DNA of 64,000 nucleotides from Chloroflexota bacterium (GTDB lineage: Bacteria > Chloroflexota > UBA11872 > VXOZ01), in contig OZ244798.1 of the NCBI GenBank assembly GCA_965220015.1, forward strand, positions 3,108,407-3,172,406, in the 5' to 3' direction. Both the position numbers and the translations under genes were made by a program. Shown in pieces: positions 30,024-37,325 of this stretch. Under the pieces are notes generated by a model. It did not search any database and was not told where the DNA came from. It worked only from the letters and a program-made list of their open reading frames with translations. Position 1 is the stretch's first letter, and each line of letters starts with the position of its first letter.

Positions 30024-31232
30024 TTACGCTAAGACCGGATAGAGTAGTTCATCGAAAGTCACCGCGCGATTACTGTGGTCGATACTCAGGCGTACGGCCT
30101 CGGCGATGGCAGTGCCGACGACGGCCTGTTGCGGCAGGGGGCGCTTCTTAGCAAGTTCCGCGAGCATGCCGCGCCGCACCTGCAGCGCCTGCGCCGCGTC
30201 CATACCCTCGGTTTCGCGCAGGATGCGCCGCGCGTCGTGCACGCCCTGCATTACGCTATCGTAGCCATAGCCCACGTACTCGGTGCCCTCGCCGTCCCAC
30301 GGCTCGTATTGCTTGAAGAAGTTCGGGTTGAAGTGCTCGAAGCCCTTGTCCTGGGTGACGAAATGCAGCTTGCGGTCTTTGTGGTCGGCCCAGTATTCGC
30401 CCTGCGTGCCCGAAAGCTGCAGGCCCTGGTTCGTGAGCGAACTATTCGCTTCCGCGCACACCCATGACGTCTGCACCCAGAGCACCGAGCCGTCAGTCCA
30501 TTCGATTACGCCCTGCACCGCGTCAAACGCGTCCTGGCCCTGTGTGGGCAGGAACTTCTTCTGGCCGAAGCCCCACACACGCGCGGGCTTGAGGCCGGTG
30601 ATGTAGTAATAGGCATCGGCGTAGTGCACGCCAATATATTCAAAAGGAGAGCTTTCCTCGGCCCACAAGGAAAAAATATCCAGCGGCATCTCGCGCCGCT
30701 CTTCGATCCACGCGTGGCCGTGCAACATCTCGCCCAAGTGTCCCTGGCGGTAGTAGCGCTGGGCCGCGCGGATGGCGCGGTCGTGGCGCTTATGGTAGTC
30801 GGTGTAGACGTAGATGCCCTTGTTTTCCGCAGCGGTAAGAATGGTGTAGACATCCGCGACTTTGAGACAGAGCGGCTTTTGCACCACCACGTGGTGGCCG
30901 CGTTCGATTGCCTCCAGAATCATCTCGGTGTGGAGATGATCGGGTGTCGCCACCATCACCACGCCGTGGGGATCAAGGTCGTCCAGAGCCGCCTTGTAGG
31001 AATCGGGGAAAGAAGCCTCGGGATGGCTGGTGTCCGGGTCGGGGTAGCCCTGAAACGCATAGCTAGGAAACAGCTCGCGAACTTTGCGCAAGGTGCTTGC
31101 CCGCCGCGAGGCGATGCTCACCTTGCCCACTACGCCGCGGTCTTGTTCTTGAAACAGCGTCGGCAAGATCACGTCCTGGCTGATCATGCCGCCGCCGATG
31201 AGAAGTACGGGTACTCTACCGTCCCACGCCAT
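30024..31232 (-). CDS. Gfo/Idh/MocA family oxidoreductase
   Basis: IGGGMIS, ATPDHLH, QKPL, HKRHD. Confidence 0.9.
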   Translation of the reverse strand: MAWDGRVPVLLIGGGMISQDVILPTLFQEQDRGVVGKVSIASRRASTLRKVRELFPSYAFQGYPDPDTSHPEASFPDSYKAALDDLDPHGVVMVATPDHLHTEMILEAIERGHHVVVQKPLCLKVADVYTILTAAENKGIYVYTDYHKRHDRAIRAAQRYYRQGHLGEMLHGHAWIEERREMPLDIFSLWAEESSPFEYIGVHYADAYYYITGLKPARVWGFGQKKFLPTQGQDAFDAVQGVIEWTDGSVLWVQTSWVCAEANSSLTNQGLQLSGTQGEYWADHKDRKLHFVTQDKGFEHFNPNFFKQYEPWDGEGTEYVGYGYDSVMQGVHDARRILRETEGMDAAQALQVRRGMLAELAKKRPLPQQAVVGTAIAEAVRLSIDHSNRAVTFDELLYPVLA

Positions 31233-32153
31233 CAGGCTCTCACCTCATAATCTGTCACTGCATTCCGCTACGAATGCAAGAGTTCATTTACGTATCCTTG
31301 TCCTGACGCCCATCTGAAACGCTCGCACACTCCCGGCCCGGCAGGCGCAAATACCCCCTCGCTCTGGGGGGAGAGGCCCGGGTGAGGGGGACTTCTCCCC
31401 GTTCCCGCGCCTTTGCGCCGTCGGCAGAGTTACGCGAAGGTCTCCTTGGGCGAAATCAAGCGTAGCGGCAGTCTACCATAGCGCCGCCGTGTCCTCAAAG
31501 AATTTAGCTATTTTACATCAGCGCCTCATGGCTAGTCAGTTTCGTCAGTTGCGCAGGCTTGCAACCTGCACAAGCTCGGCGTTGGGCCTGACACGAGGCG
31601 ATCCTACTATTCCGTCGGTGCGGCGAAACGCCCATCCTTCACGTACGACAAGGCGTGATCAAGTAAAGACAAATAGCCGCTTGCGCGGGAAAGACATTGA
31701 ATCCCTGAAACATAAGCCAGTCCATCGTTGCCTTGATCACTTGACCTTCCCGCCAAGTCAGCAGCATACTCGAAACCGGTCGTAGATTTGTCATGCGCCG
31801 AGGAGGCAGAGCGATCATGGGCAATCGCAGGCGAATGACACGCCGGATCCTGCTCAGAGGAGCGGCAAGCAGTGCAGGCATGGTGGCCTTGGCGGCGTGC
31901 GGCACGGCGACGGCGACCCCGGAATCCGGTGAATCACCGCAAGCGGATACCAAAGCTGAGGAAAGCAATTAGTAGTTTCGGACTTATGTGATTTTGTGGG
32001 GGGTTGCGCTCGTACGGAAAAGGGTTGACAACTCTATCGTGAGGTAGACTCGCGTACGCGGGGTATTGGTGGTAAAATGAGGTTAGTTAAAACCACAGGG
32101 GTCCAGTGCGGAAACACTGAACCCCCACCCACTCCCATAAGGAGTTAGCAGAC

Positions 32154-32318
32154 ATGTCTGCGTTTAAAGTATCAGAAGCTATCCAGCCCTGCAAGGGCTG
32201 CTCGCAGTCGTTCCCCGTCTCCGTCCTCTCGGTCGAGGGGCTGTGCGCAAGCTGCGCCGAACTCAAAGGCTCTAAGTCGTTGGGCTTTCTGTGGCTCCGG
32301 CTCGCTGTGGAAGAGTAG
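32154..32318 (+). CDS. 54-aa putative zinc-finger microprotein
   Basis: TAAGGAG RBS; MSAFKVSEAIQPCKGCSQSFPVSVLSVEGLCASCAELKGSKSLGFLWLRLAVEE (CxxC...CxxC); below the ORF-track cutoff. Confidence 0.6.
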   Translation: MSAFKVSEAIQPCKGCSQSFPVSVLSVEGLCASCAELKGSKSLGFLWLRLAVEE

Positions 32319-32355
32319 CTAGCCGTCGGGCCTTGCGCTGGAATCATGGGAGGGA

Positions 32356-32547
32356 CTATTGCATCACGAGCGACAATTGGTACCACGCGCCATCGCCCCG
32401 CTTGGCAAACACACGAGCTAAGAAATCCAGGTCGGGCTTGGGGGGTGGTTCATCAGAGAGGACTATGTTGCCGATCCCAACCGGACCTTGCAAGAAGATT
32501 GGCGCGACAGGGTTGACGTGGTAGGGGCGCACGTATAAACTACGCAT
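32356..32547 (-). CDS. 63-aa hypothetical protein
   Basis: ORF track; preceded by hairpin and AGAAAG, like the 33703 module. Confidence 0.4.
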   Translation of the reverse strand: MRSLYVRPYHVNPVAPIFLQGPVGIGNIVLSDEPPPKPDLDFLARVFAKRGDGAWYQLSLVMQ

Positions 32548-32757
32548 TAGCTAGCTGCTTTCTGCCCCGGCGCTTCAACGCCGGGGCGGTTCCATTTAAC
32601 TGTTGCGCCTAGTGTATCAGGGTGCTACAAATGCTACTCCTGCCCCTCACGGGGCTAGCTGGAAACAACACAATTCCTGTGGCAATCTCAGTCTACCACA
32701 TAGCAAGGGTTGACAAGGGATAATTGGACAGTTAGCGTGAGGGTGAAAGGAGTGGTG

Positions 32758-32952
32758 ATGGATTCAAAAGAAGAACGCGTGGCACGTCTCGAAGGCGGCT
32801 ACGAACATCTGGCAACGAAGGCGGATGTTGAGCGAATCTTGGTGCAGATGGCGGAGTTGCGCGGTGAGTTTCGCGGTATCAAGTGGGCCCTGATTACTTC
32901 TATCGCCTTAGCCGGCATCACAGTTGCGGCCGTTGCCTTTCTCGCTAGTTAA
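32758..32952 (+). CDS. Small coiled-coil/C-terminal TM protein (DUF1640/XhlA-like 'HLATKAD' type)
   Basis: AAAGGAG RBS; RVARLEGGYEHLATKADV...KWALITSIALAGITVAAVAFL. Confidence 0.72.
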   Translation: MDSKEERVARLEGGYEHLATKADVERILVQMAELRGEFRGIKWALITSIALAGITVAAVAFLAS

Positions 32953-33039
32953 GAAGGAGGTGCGCTTTGATCTGTCTTTGTCCGTCGCCCATACGGGCGG
33001 CAAAGAGTAGGTCGTTCTTTGTCACAGAGGAGACTAGAC

Positions 33040-33336
33040 ATGAGAAAGCTCATCATCCTTGGGTTAGTCCTGATTTTGGCGTTGCTCCCAAGCAGCGCCT
33101 ACACCGCTGACACTCCCGACTACACCGATCCCACTGTCCTACAGGGAATCATGCAAGACTTGGAAGCGTCGGATGATCCGCATCAGGCGTTCTCCCAGCT
33201 ACCACCGGCGGTCCAGCAAGCGATCATGGATTCTATTCGGGAGAATGTGACGATTGAGGGACCGTTCGAGACTAGGAGCGGAGTTGTTCTCCATTGCCTA
33301 AGCCGCCACCATTACCCGCACCATAGCAAGGGTTGA
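33040..33336 (+). CDS. Secreted hypothetical protein, possibly 3'-truncated
   Basis: GAGGAG RBS; MRKLIILGLVLILALLPSSAYTA signal peptide; stop falls inside a direct repeat. Confidence 0.6.
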   Translation: MRKLIILGLVLILALLPSSAYTADTPDYTDPTVLQGIMQDLEASDDPHQAFSQLPPAVQQAIMDSIRENVTIEGPFETRSGVVLHCLSRHHYPHHSKG

Positions 33337-33347
33337 CAAGGGATAAT

Positions 33348-33376
33348 TGGTCAGGCAAGAGGGATGGGAATATAAT
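33348..33376 (+). promoter_or_regulatory. Sigma70-like promoter for the CAG tRNA-like gene
   Basis: TGGTCA-17 bp-TATAAT, followed by a perfect 26-bp palindrome 33377..33402. Confidence 0.6.
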
Positions 33377-33413
33377 AACCCCGTACCGATCGGTACGGGG
33401 TTTCGTTTTCTAC

Positions 33414-33508
33414 GGAGGGTATTGTCTGTCAGTACAGAACCAGTGCTCAGAACACTCGGAGCGCCAGGGCATAGTCCTGGCGTTGCGGTGCAACTCCGCT
33501 ACCCTCCG
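33414..33508 (+). tRNA. Non-canonical (8/4) allo-tRNA-like gene, anticodon CAG, Ser-type body
   Basis: Acceptor GGAGGGTA/TACCCTCC (8 bp) plus G73; D arm TCTGT-CAGT-ACAGA; anticodon AGTG-CT CAG AA-CACT; ~11-bp V arm; T arm GCGG-TGCAACT-CCGC (4 bp); no encoded CCA. Confidence 0.8.
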
Positions 33509-33702
33509 CAGCCTTTCACAAACCACCGCAACAGCTTCACTCTACAGTGGCTAGGATTAATTTGTCAACCCGCCGCCATTGCCCGCGCCATGAAGTCGTC
33601 CCAGGGCATCTCGGCTCGTCAAGTCCTCGTTTGGTAGACTAGACATAGTTAAATAGAGCCGCCCCGGCGCGTCAACGCCGGGGCAGAAAGGCAACCCAGG
33701 TT

Positions 33703-33906
33703 ATGGGTATTCTACGTCTACCTCGTCGCCGCGTCAAGTCCCCGTTTGCAGACGGCATCCCGAAGCGCAAACGACCTGCCACGCTCAATGGCGAGTGCGG
33801 GGCTTCGGCTTTTGCTAGTATAGAATCACAATTAAAAGCCACGCCCCCAGTGCGGAAACACTGGGGGCCAAACTCCAAGAAGGAGCATAGACATGTCTAT
33901 GCGTAG
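33703..33906 (+). CDS. Small basic hypothetical peptide
   Basis: Shares RRVKSPFADGIPKRKRPATL with the next ORF through a 61-bp duplication. Confidence 0.35.
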   Translation: MGILRLPRRRVKSPFADGIPKRKRPATLNGECGASAFASIESQLKATPPVRKHWGPNSKKEHRHVYA

Positions 33907-34054
33907 AGTACCCTTGCGTCCCCGCCGCGTCAAGTCCCCGTTTGCAGACGGCATCCCGAAGCGCAAACGACCTGCCACGCTCAGACCGCTACCTATGCCG
34001 CGCCTGAAACCGTTGACACCGCTGCCTAAGCTATCGCCATTGCCTGCGCCATGA
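33893..34054 (+). CDS. 53-aa Pro/Arg/Lys/Leu-rich peptide
   Basis: AAGGAG RBS; MSMRRVPLRPRRVKSPFADGIPKRKRPATLRPLPMPRLKPLTPLPKLSPLPAP; overlaps the transposase 3' end. Confidence 0.45.
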   Translation: MSMRRVPLRPRRVKSPFADGIPKRKRPATLRPLPMPRLKPLTPLPKLSPLPAP

Positions 34055-34883
34055 AGTCGTCCCAGGGCATCTCGGCCTTGCGGATATTGTACTTGTAGGT
34101 AGCCTCGTCGATGTAGGCGTGGGCGTGTTCCACCGTGTAGTGGTGGTGCTGGCCGGCAATGGCTCGCTTCACCAAGCTCCAGAACCCCTCGATGGTGTTC
34201 GTATGGGTGATACCGTCAACGTAGTGGATGCTGTGGTTGACCGTCTTGTGGGCCATCCAGTCGCGCACTTCGTTGTAGCCGGGGAACTGATCGGTCATGA
34301 GGACAGCTCGGGGATCCACGTTGCGGCGCAGGAAAGCGTTGATGAGCCGTGCCGTGACGCGGGGCGAGGGTTGCGCCTTCACCTTACCGTCGCGCTCGAC
34401 CGCGCCAACCACGGTGATCTTCTTCGTGCGGCCGCGCGAACGTTGCTCGTTGTTCTTGCGGGGCTTGCCGCCGATGTAGGTTTCGTCCGCTTCGACGATG
34501 CCGGACAGGAACGTGCTGTCGTCCACCATCGCCTTGCGGATGCGCATGGCCATGTACCAAGCCGACTTCTGGTTACAATCCAGGTCCCTGGCAAGCTGGC
34601 AGCTTGATACGGACTTCTTGGCGTTGATCAGGATAGCGATAGCGGCGAACCACTTTTGCAGGGGAATCTTCGTGCCCTGGAAGATGGTGCCGGAGAGGAC
34701 TTTGAAGGTGGACAGGCAGTTGTGGCAATTCCAGCGGCCCACGTGTTTATGCTCGGTCTTGCGGGCCACGTCGTTGCTGTTGCAGTAGGGGCAGCGAGGG
34801 TCGTCACCCCAGCGGAGCTGCTCCAGGTGGGCGATGCAGGCTTCCTGAGTGGGAAAGCGCTTGGCAATCGTCAAGAGGTTCAT
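34026..34883 (-). CDS. IS1595-family transposase
   Basis: LRW..CPYC...CHNC zinc ribbon; VEADETY, LMTD, NTIEGFWSLVKR catalytic motifs; CAGGAG RBS. Confidence 0.95.
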   Translation of the reverse strand: MNLLTIAKRFPTQEACIAHLEQLRWGDDPRCPYCNSNDVARKTEHKHVGRWNCHNCLSTFKVLSGTIFQGTKIPLQKWFAAIAILINAKKSVSSCQLARDLDCNQKSAWYMAMRIRKAMVDDSTFLSGIVEADETYIGGKPRKNNEQRSRGRTKKITVVGAVERDGKVKAQPSPRVTARLINAFLRRNVDPRAVLMTDQFPGYNEVRDWMAHKTVNHSIHYVDGITHTNTIEGFWSLVKRAIAGQHHHYTVEHAHAYIDEATYKYNIRKAEMPWDDFMAQAMAIA

Positions 34884-34911
34884 GGTATACTCCTGTTACC
34901 GGTAAGAAAAA

Positions 34912-34999
34912 GGAGCCGGTGGGATTCGAACCCACGGAAGCGCGCGCACACCTCACCCGATTCTCAGTCGGGTCCTTTAGACCGCTCAGGCACGGCTCC
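34912..34999 (-). tRNA. tRNA with Ser-type body and GAG (Leu) anticodon
   Basis: GGAGCCG TG CCTGAGCGGTCTAAAGG A CCCGA CT GAG AA TCGGG T GAGGTGT-GCGC-GCGCTTC C GTGGG TTCGAAT CCCAC CGGCTCC; next base U; no CCA. Confidence 0.85.
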
Positions 35000-35039
35000 T
35001 CGCAGAACCATCAGATTGAATTATCTGGTGGTTCTTTGC

Positions 35040-35048
35040 ATTATATCA
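35040..35048 (-). promoter_or_regulatory. Extended -10 promoter for the GAG tRNA and transposase
   Basis: TGA-TATAAT on the minus strand, then 13-bp hairpin 35004..35035 just before the tRNA. Confidence 0.6.
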
Positions 35049-35106
35049 GGGAAGCGCTTGGAGACTTCGAGTACATTCATAAGCAACCTTTCAAAGGGGT
35101 TTGAAC

Positions 35107-35310
35107 ATGACAGTGGATAATGGGGAACGGACATATTGTGTGCAATTGGATCCAGTGAGCGGATCATGGCCGCCTGTGATACGGCTAAAGGCAGACAAAC
35201 TAGCGAAGAAAGCTGGACCAGGGCAGCTTGTTTTCACACTCGGCGAAGAAGAAGTAGGGGAGATTACGGCGAAGGTCGCCGCGTGGTGGATTTGCGAAGA
35301 AACCGAGTAG
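35107..35310 (+). CDS. Small hypothetical protein
   Basis: AAGGGG upstream; MTVDNGERTY...EEVGEITAKVAAWWI. Confidence 0.55.
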   Translation: MTVDNGERTYCVQLDPVSGSWPPVIRLKADKLAKKAGPGQLVFTLGEEEVGEITAKVAAWWICEETE

Positions 35311-35342
35311 CTCATGGGCAATCTTTCTGAGGAGGGTATGGA

Positions 35343-35624
35343 ATGAAACGGGATATGGGTCTCATTCGGATGATTTTGGGTTATGTGGAAGAGAACGGGA
35401 ACGGGAACAGACCGTTACTTGCACCTGAATTTGAGCACTTTTGCCAGTTTGAGAAAGCTAAGATTGCGTACCATATTGGGTTGTGCCATGACGCAGGGTT
35501 CATCCTGCTAGCCAATTCTGTAGAGGCACACAGACGATGCACACACGGCGCGTACCAGATTATCGGACTTACCTGGGAAGGACACGAGAAGCTCGATGCA
35601 CTGCGTGGCGATCACTACGACTAA
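35343..35624 (+). CDS. DUF2513-like winged-helix protein
   Basis: MKRDMGLIRMIL, YHIGLC..AGFI, LTWEGHEKLD; GAGGAGG RBS. Confidence 0.8.
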   Translation: MKRDMGLIRMILGYVEENGNGNRPLLAPEFEHFCQFEKAKIAYHIGLCHDAGFILLANSVEAHRRCTHGAYQIIGLTWEGHEKLDALRGDHYD

Positions 35625-35667
35625 CCCTTTCACCTCCTGACTTCATTACCCCACCCCGTCAAGAGGT

Positions 35668-35985
35668 TCATGAGTTATTCTCTTGGGAAGCGCTCACGCT
35701 ACCAATACCGAAGGTGTGTAAGCATTCGGCGTCTTTGTTGATCTGATCCAACAACTCACGCAATTCCCTTATGCACTCAGCCAGATTGTCACGCTCACCA
35801 TAGAAGGATGGGATTGAAACGATGCTAGGATTATTTTGTAAGGATCGACCAAAGGACTCGATGGTCCCCCCCATACTTGAAAGTTTTGCGCGGATGACAA
35901 CTGCGCGTTGTTGATTAGAGATATGCCTGCGAACAAGATCGCCTAAAACTTGACTGTACTCTTCTTCCGTCATATCATTCTTCAT
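35668..35985 (-). CDS. Hypothetical helical protein
   Basis: AGGAGGT RBS; 105-aa ORF bracketed by 35-bp direct repeats. Confidence 0.65.
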   Translation of the reverse strand: MKNDMTEEEYSQVLGDLVRRHISNQQRAVVIRAKLSSMGGTIESFGRSLQNNPSIVSIPSFYGERDNLAECIRELRELLDQINKDAECLHTFGIGSVSASQENNS

Positions 35986-37325
35986 TCTCGTTACCTCCTG
36001 ACTTCATTATCCCACCCCGTCAAGAGGATGTCAAGTCCGAAACTACTAATTCCGGCTGAGGAAGCCCCCAAGACACTGGCGCAGACCACCGTCAGCGCCC
36101 TTATGGTGCTGCGGGGCCAGAACGAAACGTGGATCAAATCCTGGCTTACCATCTTTGCGGACTTCGAAGCCAAGCACCCCGAACATAAGCTGGAAATAAT
36201 CGATTCCGCATTCGACCAAGTTTCCGCAAGGGCGACCACTACCATGGCTGCCGGTTTCACGTTTGATGCCATCTACGGCTACTTTGGCTGGCTGGGGCTG
36301 TTTGTCGATGCGGGAATCATCCAGGCGATCAGTCCCCTCTTGGCGAAAGACACCGAAGTCTCCCAGGATGACTTCTATGAATTCGGATTTCTCAAACACA
36401 AAGGCATTGCCTATGGACTGGCGTGGCTGCTCACCGCCCACCCCATTTGGTCCAACAATGACAAGTTCGTCGAGGCGGGCTTGAAGACTCCCGCCGAGCT
36501 CGAAGCCGAAGGCAACTGGACGTGGGAAGCCGCGCTGGAAGCCGCAGTCAGGCTCACCAAGCGCGAGGGCGATGACCTCACGTTTGGCGGCCTGCAGATC
36601 TACCCCATGTACACGTCAAATCTGCCGTACTATGCCTGGGCGTGGGGCGCGGACTTGTGGAATGAAGGTTGCACGCAGGCCACGTTCAACACCCCTGCGT
36701 TTGCTGATGCGGTGCAATTCTGCGTCGACCTCTTTGCCAAACACAAGGTTATTGGCGGCAACTTCCTGGAAGGCACCTTGGGCATGTTCGAGCGGGCTAC
36801 CGGCGGCGTGCGCCAATTCGAGGAGAGGATCACGGCGCGCGACCTCTTCGAGATTGGCATGGCGCCCCGGCCGAAGGGGCCGAATGGCGAACGTGCAACG
36901 GTCATGACGCCCAGCGGTATCTTCATAGGCTATGGCGCCAAGAACGCGGAAGGCGGCTGGGCCTTCAGCAAATACACGGTGAGCGCCGACGCACTGCCGG
37001 AGATCGCAGCCACCGGCCACGGTCGCTTCACCGCCAACAAAAATCTGGAGCCGTTGACGCTCCATCCCTACGAGAACCCCGAAGTCTACAAGCAGATGGC
37101 AAGCGAAGGCCGGCCGGTGCCGCAATTGCTCAGGCAAGACGACTTCACCACCGAGTGGCGTGCCACGTGGGACGCAATGGTGAAGGGCTCGCTCACCGTC
37201 GCCGAGGGTATGGCGAAGACCCAAGCGCAGATGCAAGGCTGGATTAATAGAGGCGGCTGCCTGTGGTAGAAGCGCAAAGCCGCATTGCTTCGTTGAGATG
37301 CCGCTGCGTCATGGGGAAGACGCTG

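Follow-up and report, generated by a model that had tools for sequence, protein, structure and literature searches.

INTRODUCTION

In Mukai et al. 2017 (PMC5389517), allo-tRNAs are defined by a 12-bp acceptor branch of the 8/4 or 9/3 type, a selenocysteine (Sec)-like D arm, and a long variable (V) arm. The further features given there are a longer anticodon stem, G73 or U73, and a non-serine anticodon. For some allo-tRNAs, serylation and use in translation were shown in Escherichia coli (PMC5389517). The (8/4) allo-tRNA(GAG) of Silvibacterium inserted serine at CUC in E. coli and was toxic, and six of six tested allo-tRNA(UAU) variants were inactive in E. coli and were linked to transposable elements and toxin-antitoxin loci (PMC5389517). 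Reporters of the sfGFP type served there for the codons CUC and UUA. The text of the same paper lists CUG among the 9/3-type codons. According to that text and to a 2020 review, allo-tRNAs occur in Clostridia, Proteobacteria, and Acidobacteria; Chloroflexi appear in both only for an 8/4 tRNA-Sec. Here we describe an (8/4) allo-tRNA-like gene with anticodon CAG, allo-tRNA(CAG), in the genome of a Chloroflexota bacterium (assembly GCA_965220015.1). The gene lies within a mobile insertion in the window, the 64,000-nucleotide (nt) stretch of contig OZ244798.1 that was analyzed as a whole, and coordinates below are positions in that window unless stated otherwise.

Like the (8/4) allo-tRNAs, for example the allo-tRNA(GAG) of Silvibacterium bohemicum, the window gene combines a 12-bp branch, a Sec-like D arm, a long V arm, a longer anticodon stem, G73, and a Leu-box anticodon with transposable elements nearby. 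Unlike the allo-tRNAs in the published accounts cited here, it has a Chloroflexota host and one relative in a bacterium of the Candidate Phyla Radiation (CPR). This comparison with published allo-tRNAs is by the description of the class in those accounts, not by sequence. The window copy and two of its relatives share a CAGT D loop and a TGCAACT T loop (A18 and G55) that set them apart from the allo-tRNAs so described. A GC-rich hairpin lies upstream of the window gene, and such a hairpin finds no mention in the text of Mukai et al. 2017 (PMC5389517). A full-text literature search for "allo-tRNA" together with "Chloroflex" returned only Mukai et al. Relative to these accounts, the novelty therefore lies in the phylum, in carriage by a transposon-like insertion that also brings a companion Ser-like tRNA(GAG), in the hairpin upstream of the gene, and in the A18/G55 loops; the structural class was already known.

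Three other systems invite comparison. Bacterial tRNA-Sec (selC) shares with the window gene the 8-bp acceptor, long D stem, 4-nt D loop, 6-bp anticodon stem, long V arm, and G73. However, the tRNA-Sec of the host has a 5-bp T stem, a 13-bp branch, and anticodon TCA, whereas allo-tRNA(CAG) has a 4-bp T stem and a 12-bp branch. A 12-bp acceptor branch is the length accepted by elongation factor Tu (EF-Tu). The anticodon of allo-tRNA(CAG) is not UCA, its branch is not 13 bp, and it does not match the tRNA-Sec model RF01852. As to charging, tRNA-Sec is a substrate of seryl-tRNA synthetase (SerRS) (PMC5389517). The tRNA-Ser(CAG) of CTG-clade yeasts (Candida) likewise joins a serine-type body to a CAG anticodon and reads CUG as Ser, and Leu-to-Ser mistranslation in Candida is mentioned in PMC10404621. 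However, the yeast tRNA is eukaryotic, has a canonical 7/5 branch, is encoded on the chromosome, and reads CUG in a fixed manner with adapted CUG usage. The window gene, in contrast, is bacterial, 8/4, and part of a sporadic mobile insertion, in a host that has a normal tRNA-Leu(CAG) and uses CUG for 32% of its Leu codons. The tRNA-ProX genes (ProA, ProN, and ProT) of Streptomyces and Kitasatospora are toxic in E. coli and are proposed to be deliberate mistranslation devices (PMC10404621). By that account they too are natural bacterial tRNAs in which body identity and anticodon disagree. They have a canonical cloverleaf and proline identity and usually lie beside a ProRS isoform, whereas the window gene is serine-type and 8/4.

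RESULTS AND DISCUSSION

An 8/4 cloverleaf with anticodon CAG

ARAGORN called a 96-nt tRNA with anticodon CAG at 33414-33509 on the plus strand and labeled it tRNA-Leu. The call is joined by the cloverleaf predicted by RNAfold, by a covariance model (R1) built from this sequence alone, and by covariation across a family of relatives. The minimum free energy (MFE) of the sequence was -47.7 kcal/mol against a shuffle mean of -30.8 (z = -5.0), and none of 200 shuffles was as stable. The MFE structure is the 8/4 cloverleaf that the preliminary description had proposed. The stems, loops, anticodon, G73, promoter-like boxes, and palindrome named in that description are all present where it placed them.

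In both the MFE fold and the ARAGORN drawing, the acceptor stem is 8 bp long (33414-33421 with 33500-33507) and the T stem 4 bp long (33485-33488 with 33496-33499), closed by the T loop TGCAACT. This is the 8/4 branch of Mukai et al. 2017. The D arm is Sec-like in the RNAfold structure, with a 5-bp stem, a flanking G.A mismatch at its outermost position, and the 4-nt loop CAGT, as had been described. The L007 relative (see below) has a 6-bp D stem, with G.T where the window copy has G.A. The anticodon loop has 7 nt (CT-CAG-AA), with the anticodon at 33448-33450. The anticodon stem, at 6 bp, exceeds the usual 5 and has one bulged C in its 3' strand. The preliminary description was right that this stem is irregular; its reading as a C:C mismatch gives way to the bulge, which fits better in both RNAfold and the covariance model. 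In alignment A4, 16 of the 17 rows have a base at this unpaired position. The bulge is therefore a family feature and not decay. The V arm is long, at 25 nt in total: in the RNAfold structure, its stem has 11 bp and its loop 3 nt. V arms in the family span 17-37 nt. The discriminator is G73 (33508), followed by C74 (33509) and then AGCC, so that CCA is not encoded. G73 and the non-serine anticodon CAG complete the picture, and the gene has every structural feature by which Mukai et al. 2017 define (8/4) allo-tRNAs. All 34 modeled pairs are standard in the window copy, and its only irregularities are the outer D-stem G.A and the family-wide bulge.

The Rfam tRNA and tRNA-Sec (RF01852) models gave no match to the gene at E<=10 in a 451-nt stretch. 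Pipelines built on Rfam-like tRNA models would probably miss it. The earlier suggestion that standard annotation overlooks the gene is borne out to this extent, but ARAGORN does find it and mislabels it as tRNA-Leu. The feature is far beyond chance. At E<=1, R1 has no other match in the host genome (3.56 Mb), but it recovers full-length relatives from other genomes.

Relatives within the class and beyond

R1 scored 120 bits on the window gene, which was its sole match in the host genome at E<=1; the host tRNA-Sec gave no match at this threshold. R1 also matched L007, a locus in a Candidatus Nealsonbacteria metagenome-assembled genome, over its full length at 60.8 bits, and it found six further full-length matches among 150 related genomes. 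A second covariance model (R2) was run over 98 genomes of the same Chloroflexota class. At a score of at least 40 bits and a length of 87-110 nt, it found 14 genes in 12 of the 98 genomes, plus one degenerate copy at 34 bits. Four of the 17 genomes of the genus hold family members. The window copy has the highest model score of all. Its closest relative, L011, belongs to another species of the genus and scored 98 bits; it has a near-identical body and the anticodon AGG. Two copies (L015 and L023) are degenerate, with broken stems.

R2 also picks up tRNA-Sec genes from other Chloroflexota, with scores of 42-44 bits. When 151 genomes were sampled across the phylum, nothing beyond the class matched R2 except three tRNA-Sec genes, which belong to two genomes. 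Eight 74-nt matches at 29-31.5 bits in the class search were taken as canonical tRNAs by length alone, and a 75-nt match at 39.4 bits (L033) was rejected as a tRNA-Asp. A pattern scan of 185,579 species genomes gave one match, L007, in which the acceptor, D, and T stems are fully paired beyond the letters that the pattern required. The same scan of metagenome contigs returned the L007 sequence again (L008) and two chance matches in AT-rich coding DNA (L009 and L010). Two pattern scans of viral contigs gave no match. A BLAST search of 400 genomes of the phylum with the 96 nt gave only partial matches of 22-35 nt and missed the relatives found by the covariance models.

We then counted paired changes in two alignments. 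With 8 sequences, 91.3% of cells were paired and 25 of 34 pairs had changed on both sides; with 17 rows, which include one false match and two degenerate copies, the values were 89.8% and 28 of 34. None of 500 shuffles reached the observed covariation in either alignment. Slid controls gave 5-10 pairs for the 8 sequences and 13-16 pairs for the 17 rows. The alignments were fitted to the model structure, so that these pair counts are biased upward, a caveat that the slid controls share. In a comparison of the window gene with L007 alone, there were about eight compensatory double changes outside the V arm. Across the family, both the acceptor and the T helices are kept through compensatory changes. 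An acceptor start of the GGAGGG or GGAAGG type, which resembles that of host tRNA-Ser, occurs in nearly all 16 members, and G73-C74 occurs in 12 of them.

The anticodons vary: GAG is found in four of the 16 rows, TAG in three, CAG, AAG, and GAC in two each, and AGG, TGG, and GAT in one each. NAG anticodons, which correspond to the Leu CUN codons, account for 11 of the 16; these rows are related by descent, and no statistic is attached to the count. The D and T loops fall into two groups. The T loop TGCAACT occurs in three rows (the window copy, L011, and L007), and the D loop CAGT is exclusive to the same three. Among the other 13 rows, the T loop starts with TTC in 11 and the D loop contains GG in 12. 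The usual contact between the D and T loops is G18-U55. The combination of A18 and G55 therefore looks like a paired change at these contact positions, and A18 may pair with G55.

Three of the relatives deserve mention in their own right. L007 (1034-1121, plus strand) is 8/4, with the D and T loops of the window copy and the anticodon loop CTAAGAA (anticodon AAG). It received no ARAGORN call. Its gene has 57% G+C in a locus of 41% G+C and lies 68 nt upstream of a tRNA-Lys gene. In another genome of the genus (G403), the copy L022 (1501-1587, minus strand), with anticodon TAG and 70 nt from a tRNA-Glu gene, fits 9/3 better than 8/4 and may be a 9/3 allo-tRNA. A further genome, G238, has two allo-tRNAs at separate loci (L017 and L032); their anticodons, CAG and GAG, are the pair found on the insertion in the window.

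Identity elements and the host tRNA set

The host genome is a single contig of 3.56 Mb with 59% G+C and a full canonical tRNA set. One protein of the window has a cluster mate, at least 90% identical, that is assigned to Chloroflexota. Its tRNA-Leu(CAG) and tRNA-Leu(GAG) have a 7/5 branch, A73, and G37. The other three canonical tRNA-Leu genes have an A before CC(A), so that the discriminator is A in all five. A73 is a major identity element for bacterial leucyl-tRNA synthetase (LeuRS). Allo-tRNA(CAG), with G73, A37, and an 8/4 branch, has none of these tRNA-Leu features. All four host tRNA-Ser genes have G73 and start with GGAGGGG or GGAGAGG; allo-tRNA(CAG) likewise has G73, with A37 and a GGAGGG start. 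The first six pairs of its acceptor, together with G73, are identical to those of host tRNA-Ser(GCT/TGA). By its body, allo-tRNA(CAG) is a serine-type 8/4 allo-tRNA and not a leucine tRNA, in agreement with the preliminary description.

That description had also listed the missing CCA as a caveat. CCA is indeed absent, but its absence is no defect in this host: a simple string test, in which a few calls are uncertain, found CCA unencoded in 16 of the other 49 host tRNA genes called by ARAGORN. A nucleotidyltransferase gene of the PolyA_pol family is present as well. Therefore, the absent CCA is no obstacle, and CCA addition to the transcript is plausible. The genome encodes a single SerRS with an N-terminal arm domain, and it also encodes SelA. 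The host tRNA-Sec gene (genome position 1353624) has an 8-bp acceptor and a 5-bp T stem.

Codon usage was counted on long open reading frames (ORFs) with GC3 above 0.6. CUG (32.1 per 1,000 codons) and CUC (31.4 per 1,000) are the two commonest Leu codons, at 32% and 31% of Leu, respectively, and together they make up 63% of Leu codons. Outside the window, at genome coordinates C1:3544832-3544926 on the minus strand, ARAGORN called a 95-nt "tRNA-Arg(tct)" with several mismatched stem pairs. It matches neither R1 nor R2 and may be a pseudo-tRNA or a false call.

A promoter-like site and a conserved hairpin upstream

A consensus scan found a sigma-70-like promoter match, TGGTCA-17-TATAAT, at 33348-33376 on the plus strand, with 10 of 12 consensus positions. 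It is directly followed by a perfect 26-nt palindrome (33377-33402) with an 11-bp GC-rich stem and a 4-nt loop, 11 nt upstream of the tRNA gene. Both elements had been reported in the preliminary description. A T-rich tract follows the palindrome on the plus strand. The -10 box abuts the hairpin, and a start about 7 nt downstream would fall within its 5' arm. A transcript from the predicted promoter would thus escape the hairpin, and read-through from upstream would be stopped.

The 50 nt upstream of allo-tRNA(CAG) fold at -23.3 kcal/mol, the most stable value of 50 host tRNA calls (median, -10.4). Only one of the 49 other host tRNA genes reaches -20 kcal/mol. Within the family, a GC-rich hairpin of -20 kcal/mol or lower that ends 5-20 nt before the tRNA is found in 12 of 16 members. 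The hairpin sequences differ among members, and several loops share CCGCA. We considered a plain intrinsic terminator and rejected it, since a clear T run follows only 3-4 of the 12 strong hairpins; a plain terminator therefore does not explain the conservation of the hairpin.

We also rejected an antisense RNA from a promoter-like site on the minus strand (33568-33539). The TTGACA of this site belongs to a 3'-end fragment of a transposase gene, and the closest relative does not preserve the -10 box. A 33-nt repeat containing TTGACA (32699-32731 and 33322-33354, 97% identical) may be a shared promoter or a duplication scar.

A mobile insertion carries the gene

Comparison with four related genomes delimited a transposon-like insertion of about 4.1 kb (31964-36054) that carries allo-tRNA(CAG). 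All four genomes examined (G374, G310, G188, and G401) lack it: they align up to about 31905-31933 and resume at about 36054. Because these genomes skip the segment, the window has about 4.1 kb of extra DNA. Each of the genus's 16 other genomes contains a homologue of the neighboring oxidoreductase gene (30024-31232), with copies of a solute-binding-protein gene nearby. In the window, the solute-binding-protein gene is split. Its 5' end, encoding the signal peptide, is orphaned at 31793-31972 (plus strand), and the remainder resumes at about 36054 (36054-37269). Since the signal-peptide part is orphaned by the insertion, the gene is probably inactive in the host genome.

The insertion is bounded by 19-nt inverted repeats (31967-31985 and 36033-36051) that are 100% complementary. 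Three nucleotides outside them lies a 9-nt direct repeat, GCTGAGGAA, with its left copy at 31955-31963 and its right copy at 36055-36063. The intact gene in G374 has one stretch corresponding to this repeat, which is a candidate target-site duplication. The insertion encodes a 285-amino-acid DDE transposase of the IS1595 family (34026-34883, minus strand; Pfam DDE_Tnp_IS1595, 6e-35, and Zn_ribbon_IS1595; NCBIfam transpos_IS1595, 195 bits), 517 nt from allo-tRNA(CAG). It is the only transposase of this family in the host genome (a single tblastn match). An 8-bp target-site duplication is typical of the IS1595 family. Here, a transposase of the family, perfect inverted ends on which it may act, and the 9-nt repeat 3 nt outside them are seen in a single copy, and the insertion may be an IS1595-family transposon with passenger genes. 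Elsewhere in the host genome, we found no second copy of the insertion or of its exact 19-nt ends. The perfect inverted ends suggest that the insertion is recent.

Fragments of the transposase gene flank allo-tRNA(CAG). A 3'-end fragment at 33562-33615 (minus strand) lies 52 nt downstream and is convergent with the tRNA gene; its 33574-33615 part is 98% identical to 34035-34076. A second, more decayed 3'-end copy (33295-33324, minus strand; repeat family D3) lies upstream. We also considered whether the transposase is itself recoded, and this was rejected. In an alignment with four homologues, its 12 CTG/CTC codons stand opposite Leu or other non-Ser residues (1 Ser among 47 residues). There is no sign that the element needs CUG as Ser.

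A second unusual tRNA and the neighborhoods of relatives

ARAGORN called a second unusual tRNA on the insertion at 34910-35000 (minus strand), with a Ser-like body, anticodon GAG, A37, and U73, and without CCA. Its branch is 7/5, or 8/5 in the ARAGORN drawing, and the Rfam tRNA model scores it at 59.3 bits. The gene shares its strand with the transposase gene and stops 26 nt short of the ATG of the latter, on its upstream side. Aligned from end to end with tRNA-Ser(CGA) genes of related genomes, it shows 72-74% identity, with an identical T arm, a D arm that differs little, and compensatory changes in the acceptor. On the basis of this full-length likeness, tRNA(GAG) is a tRNA-Ser-derived gene with a Leu anticodon. 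A promoter-like site (35049-35020) precedes it, and the host also has a canonical tRNA-Leu(GAG).

Of 15 allo-tRNA loci in the family, six have an IS1595-family transposase, or a fragment of one, no more than 6 kb away. The genomes of these six loci hold 1, 2, 3, 3, 6, and 20 (G238) genes of the IS1595 family. With so few per genome, chance proximity to the allo-tRNA is unlikely. In three loci, each from a different genome other than the host's, a DNA methylase gene (N6_N4_Mtase) adjoins the allo-tRNA (L042:4251-5930, L038:6508-8015, and L037:1450-2671). In L037 and L038, an HNH or Mrr-type nuclease domain is joined to the methylase or comes after it.

Proposed function and alternatives

We are confident that allo-tRNA(CAG) is a real, selected 8/4 Ser-type cloverleaf on a recent mobile insertion. 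Whether it is also transcribed, matured, serylated, and reads CUG as Ser is, in our estimate, close to an even question. CUG-to-Ser missense suppression is plausible because of the identity elements and because of the E. coli precedent of the (8/4) allo-tRNA(GAG). In the mechanism that we propose, the promoter abutting the hairpin would give low, insulated transcription of allo-tRNA(CAG). The transcript would be trimmed, and the host enzyme would add CCA. The host's single bacterial-type SerRS would charge it with serine by way of the V arm, G73, and the acceptor, and EF-Tu would accept it because of the 12-bp acceptor branch. It would then read CUG, the commonest Leu codon of the host, as Ser. 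The outcome would be a mistranslating tRNA, toxic at high dose, that travels with mobile DNA. Taken overall, an intact 8/4 allo-tRNA carried as mobile cargo and mistranslating CUG as Ser is the best explanation of the locus, and we regard it as probable, with some reserve.

Several observations weigh against this explanation. CUG makes up 32% of Leu codons, so that an efficient Ser-inserting CAG tRNA should do strong harm, which argues for very low activity or none. Some allo-tRNA groups, such as allo-tRNA(UAU), are inactive. The T loop has G in place of the near-universal U55 and the D loop is CAGT without the usual GG; such noncanonical loops could impair folding, modification, or use by the ribosome. 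A terminator-like hairpin stands directly before the gene, and among public sequencing runs there was no RNA run containing the locus. Decayed transposase fragments and repeats surround the gene. Since 13 of the 17 genomes of the genus lack it, it is dispensable. Finally, the upward bias of the pair counts, noted above, bears on the covariation.

The main rival reading gives the cloverleaf no part in translation. It would be a tRNA-like RNA or DNA that is not charged or that ribosomes do not use, and it would serve the mobile element as a regulator, as a toxin-antitoxin-like part, or as transposon structure. The inactive allo-tRNA(UAU) variants (six of six tested), with their links to transposons and toxin-antitoxin loci (PMC5389517), give it a precedent as far as that account goes. 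It would also accommodate the A18 and G55 loops, the linkage to IS1595 transposases, the methylase-nuclease genes of three loci, and an upstream hairpin that is unusual for tRNA genes (present in 12 of 16 members but before only 1 of the 49 other tRNA genes of the host), and it would avoid the cost of an active suppressor at high CUG usage. However, the anticodon loop keeps the 7-nt tRNA form with T33 and A37, and the acceptor end and G73 copy host tRNA-Ser. Anticodons vary on alike bodies (CAG here, AGG in the 98-bit L011), as expected if they are read, and the NAG bias (11 of 16) is hard to explain without decoding. We therefore consider a non-translational role unlikely, though it carries real weight. 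Improbable, in our judgment, is a decaying relic, that is, a once functional allo-tRNA stranded in insertion-sequence debris and heading for loss. The debris is there, in the form of two transposase 3' fragments, 86-nt repeats (see below), and a duplicated 33-nt stretch, and both the broken-stemmed copies L015 and L023 and the sparse distribution (4 of 17 genomes) would fit. The window copy itself does not look decayed: 34 of 34 modeled pairs are standard, its score is the highest of the family, and the inverted ends of the insertion are still perfect, suggesting recent insertion.

A true leucine isoacceptor, charged by LeuRS and supplementing CUG decoding for the element or the host, would account for the CAG anticodon, for a type-II body with a long V arm like that of tRNA-Leu, and for the Leu CUN anticodons of 11 of 16 members. 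Against this stand G73 and A37, where all five host tRNA-Leu genes have an A discriminator and the two drawn have G37, as well as an acceptor start of the tRNA-Ser type and the presence of a canonical host tRNA-Leu(CAG). We hold it to be very improbable. That the cloverleaf arose by chance, or is an ARAGORN false positive, is an idea to which the failure of the Rfam tRNA and tRNA-Sec models might lend color; it is refuted by the z score of -5.0, by the full-length relatives that turned up in a distant phylum and in 12 of the 98 genomes of the class, and by compensatory change in 28 of 34 pairs.

If bacteria reassign sense codons or mistranslate deliberately in nature, allo-tRNAs are the clearest candidates for the task, and they are also a chassis for genetic-code expansion. 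With the present locus and its family, their range grows to include Chloroflexota and a CPR bacterium. The locus is a compact and datable case, in which a single, apparently recent insertion with intact ends brings two serine-type tRNAs for the two commonest leucine codons, next to the only IS1595 transposase gene of the genome. The family offers three leads: the bias toward Leu CUN anticodons, the upstream hairpin conserved in position, and the apparently paired A18/G55 change. An active tRNA would mean that the organism either puts up with CUG-to-Ser mistranslation or controls it; an inactive one would mean that the mobile element has some other use for the conserved cloverleaf. Either outcome bears on how the genetic code is upheld or bent in nature.

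A more speculative extension, which we think decidedly unlikely, is that allo-tRNA(CAG), the hairpin, and tRNA(GAG) form a mobile "mistranslation cassette." Such a cassette would be carried on IS1595-type transposons and restriction modification-like islands of one Chloroflexota class, kept almost silent by the hairpin, and a proteome-wide poison on release. Its role would then be that of a module through which the mobile element achieves addiction, abortive infection, or a stress response, and not that of a housekeeping adaptor. Its two Ser-charged tRNAs would target CUG and CUC, 63% of Leu codons, and the NAG preference (11 of 16) would reflect selection for maximal toxicity.

Small ORFs and repeats of the insertion

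None of the seven scanned ORFs from the insertion was matched by PADLOC, and NCBIfam matched only the transposase. Among 16 ORFs from the insertion and its flanks that were scanned with Pfam, PADLOC, or NCBIfam, there was no match to an aminoacyl-tRNA synthetase family. A small ORF at 32758-32952 (plus strand; 64 amino acids from ATG) encodes a tail-anchored membrane protein. It gave weak leads only, to DUF2730 (E of 4e-4, below the cutoff) and to an XhlA-like family (0.89). By tblastn and clustering, this ORF is present in three loci, with homologues near allo-tRNAs or the transposase in two loci besides that of the window. A second small ORF (33040-33336, plus strand) has a signal peptide-like N terminus and no family match, and it ends 40 nt before the hairpin.

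An 86-nt direct repeat (33702-33787 and 33898-33983) is 87% identical between its copies, and the last 61 nt are identical. It encodes the start of two small ORFs that share the motif RRVKSPFADGIPKRKRPATL, and the genome has one further stretch of DNA about 80% identical to it. Two 44-nt sequences (32558-32601 and 33647-33690) form an inverted pair with 84% complementarity, and each of them has a strong GC-rich, terminator-like hairpin. Metagenome contigs also cover the locus: run X1 spans the entire stretch and may come from the source sample, and X3 and X4 cover it partially at low depth. One contig joint skips 32826-34021 (sides of 43 and 51 letters at 85% likeness), and repeats or other organisms could yield such a joint. 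Near the right end of the insertion, a 35-nt direct repeat (35632-35666 and 35993-36027) is 97% identical, and contigs of runs X1 and X3 have a joint that goes back 361 at the positions of this repeat.

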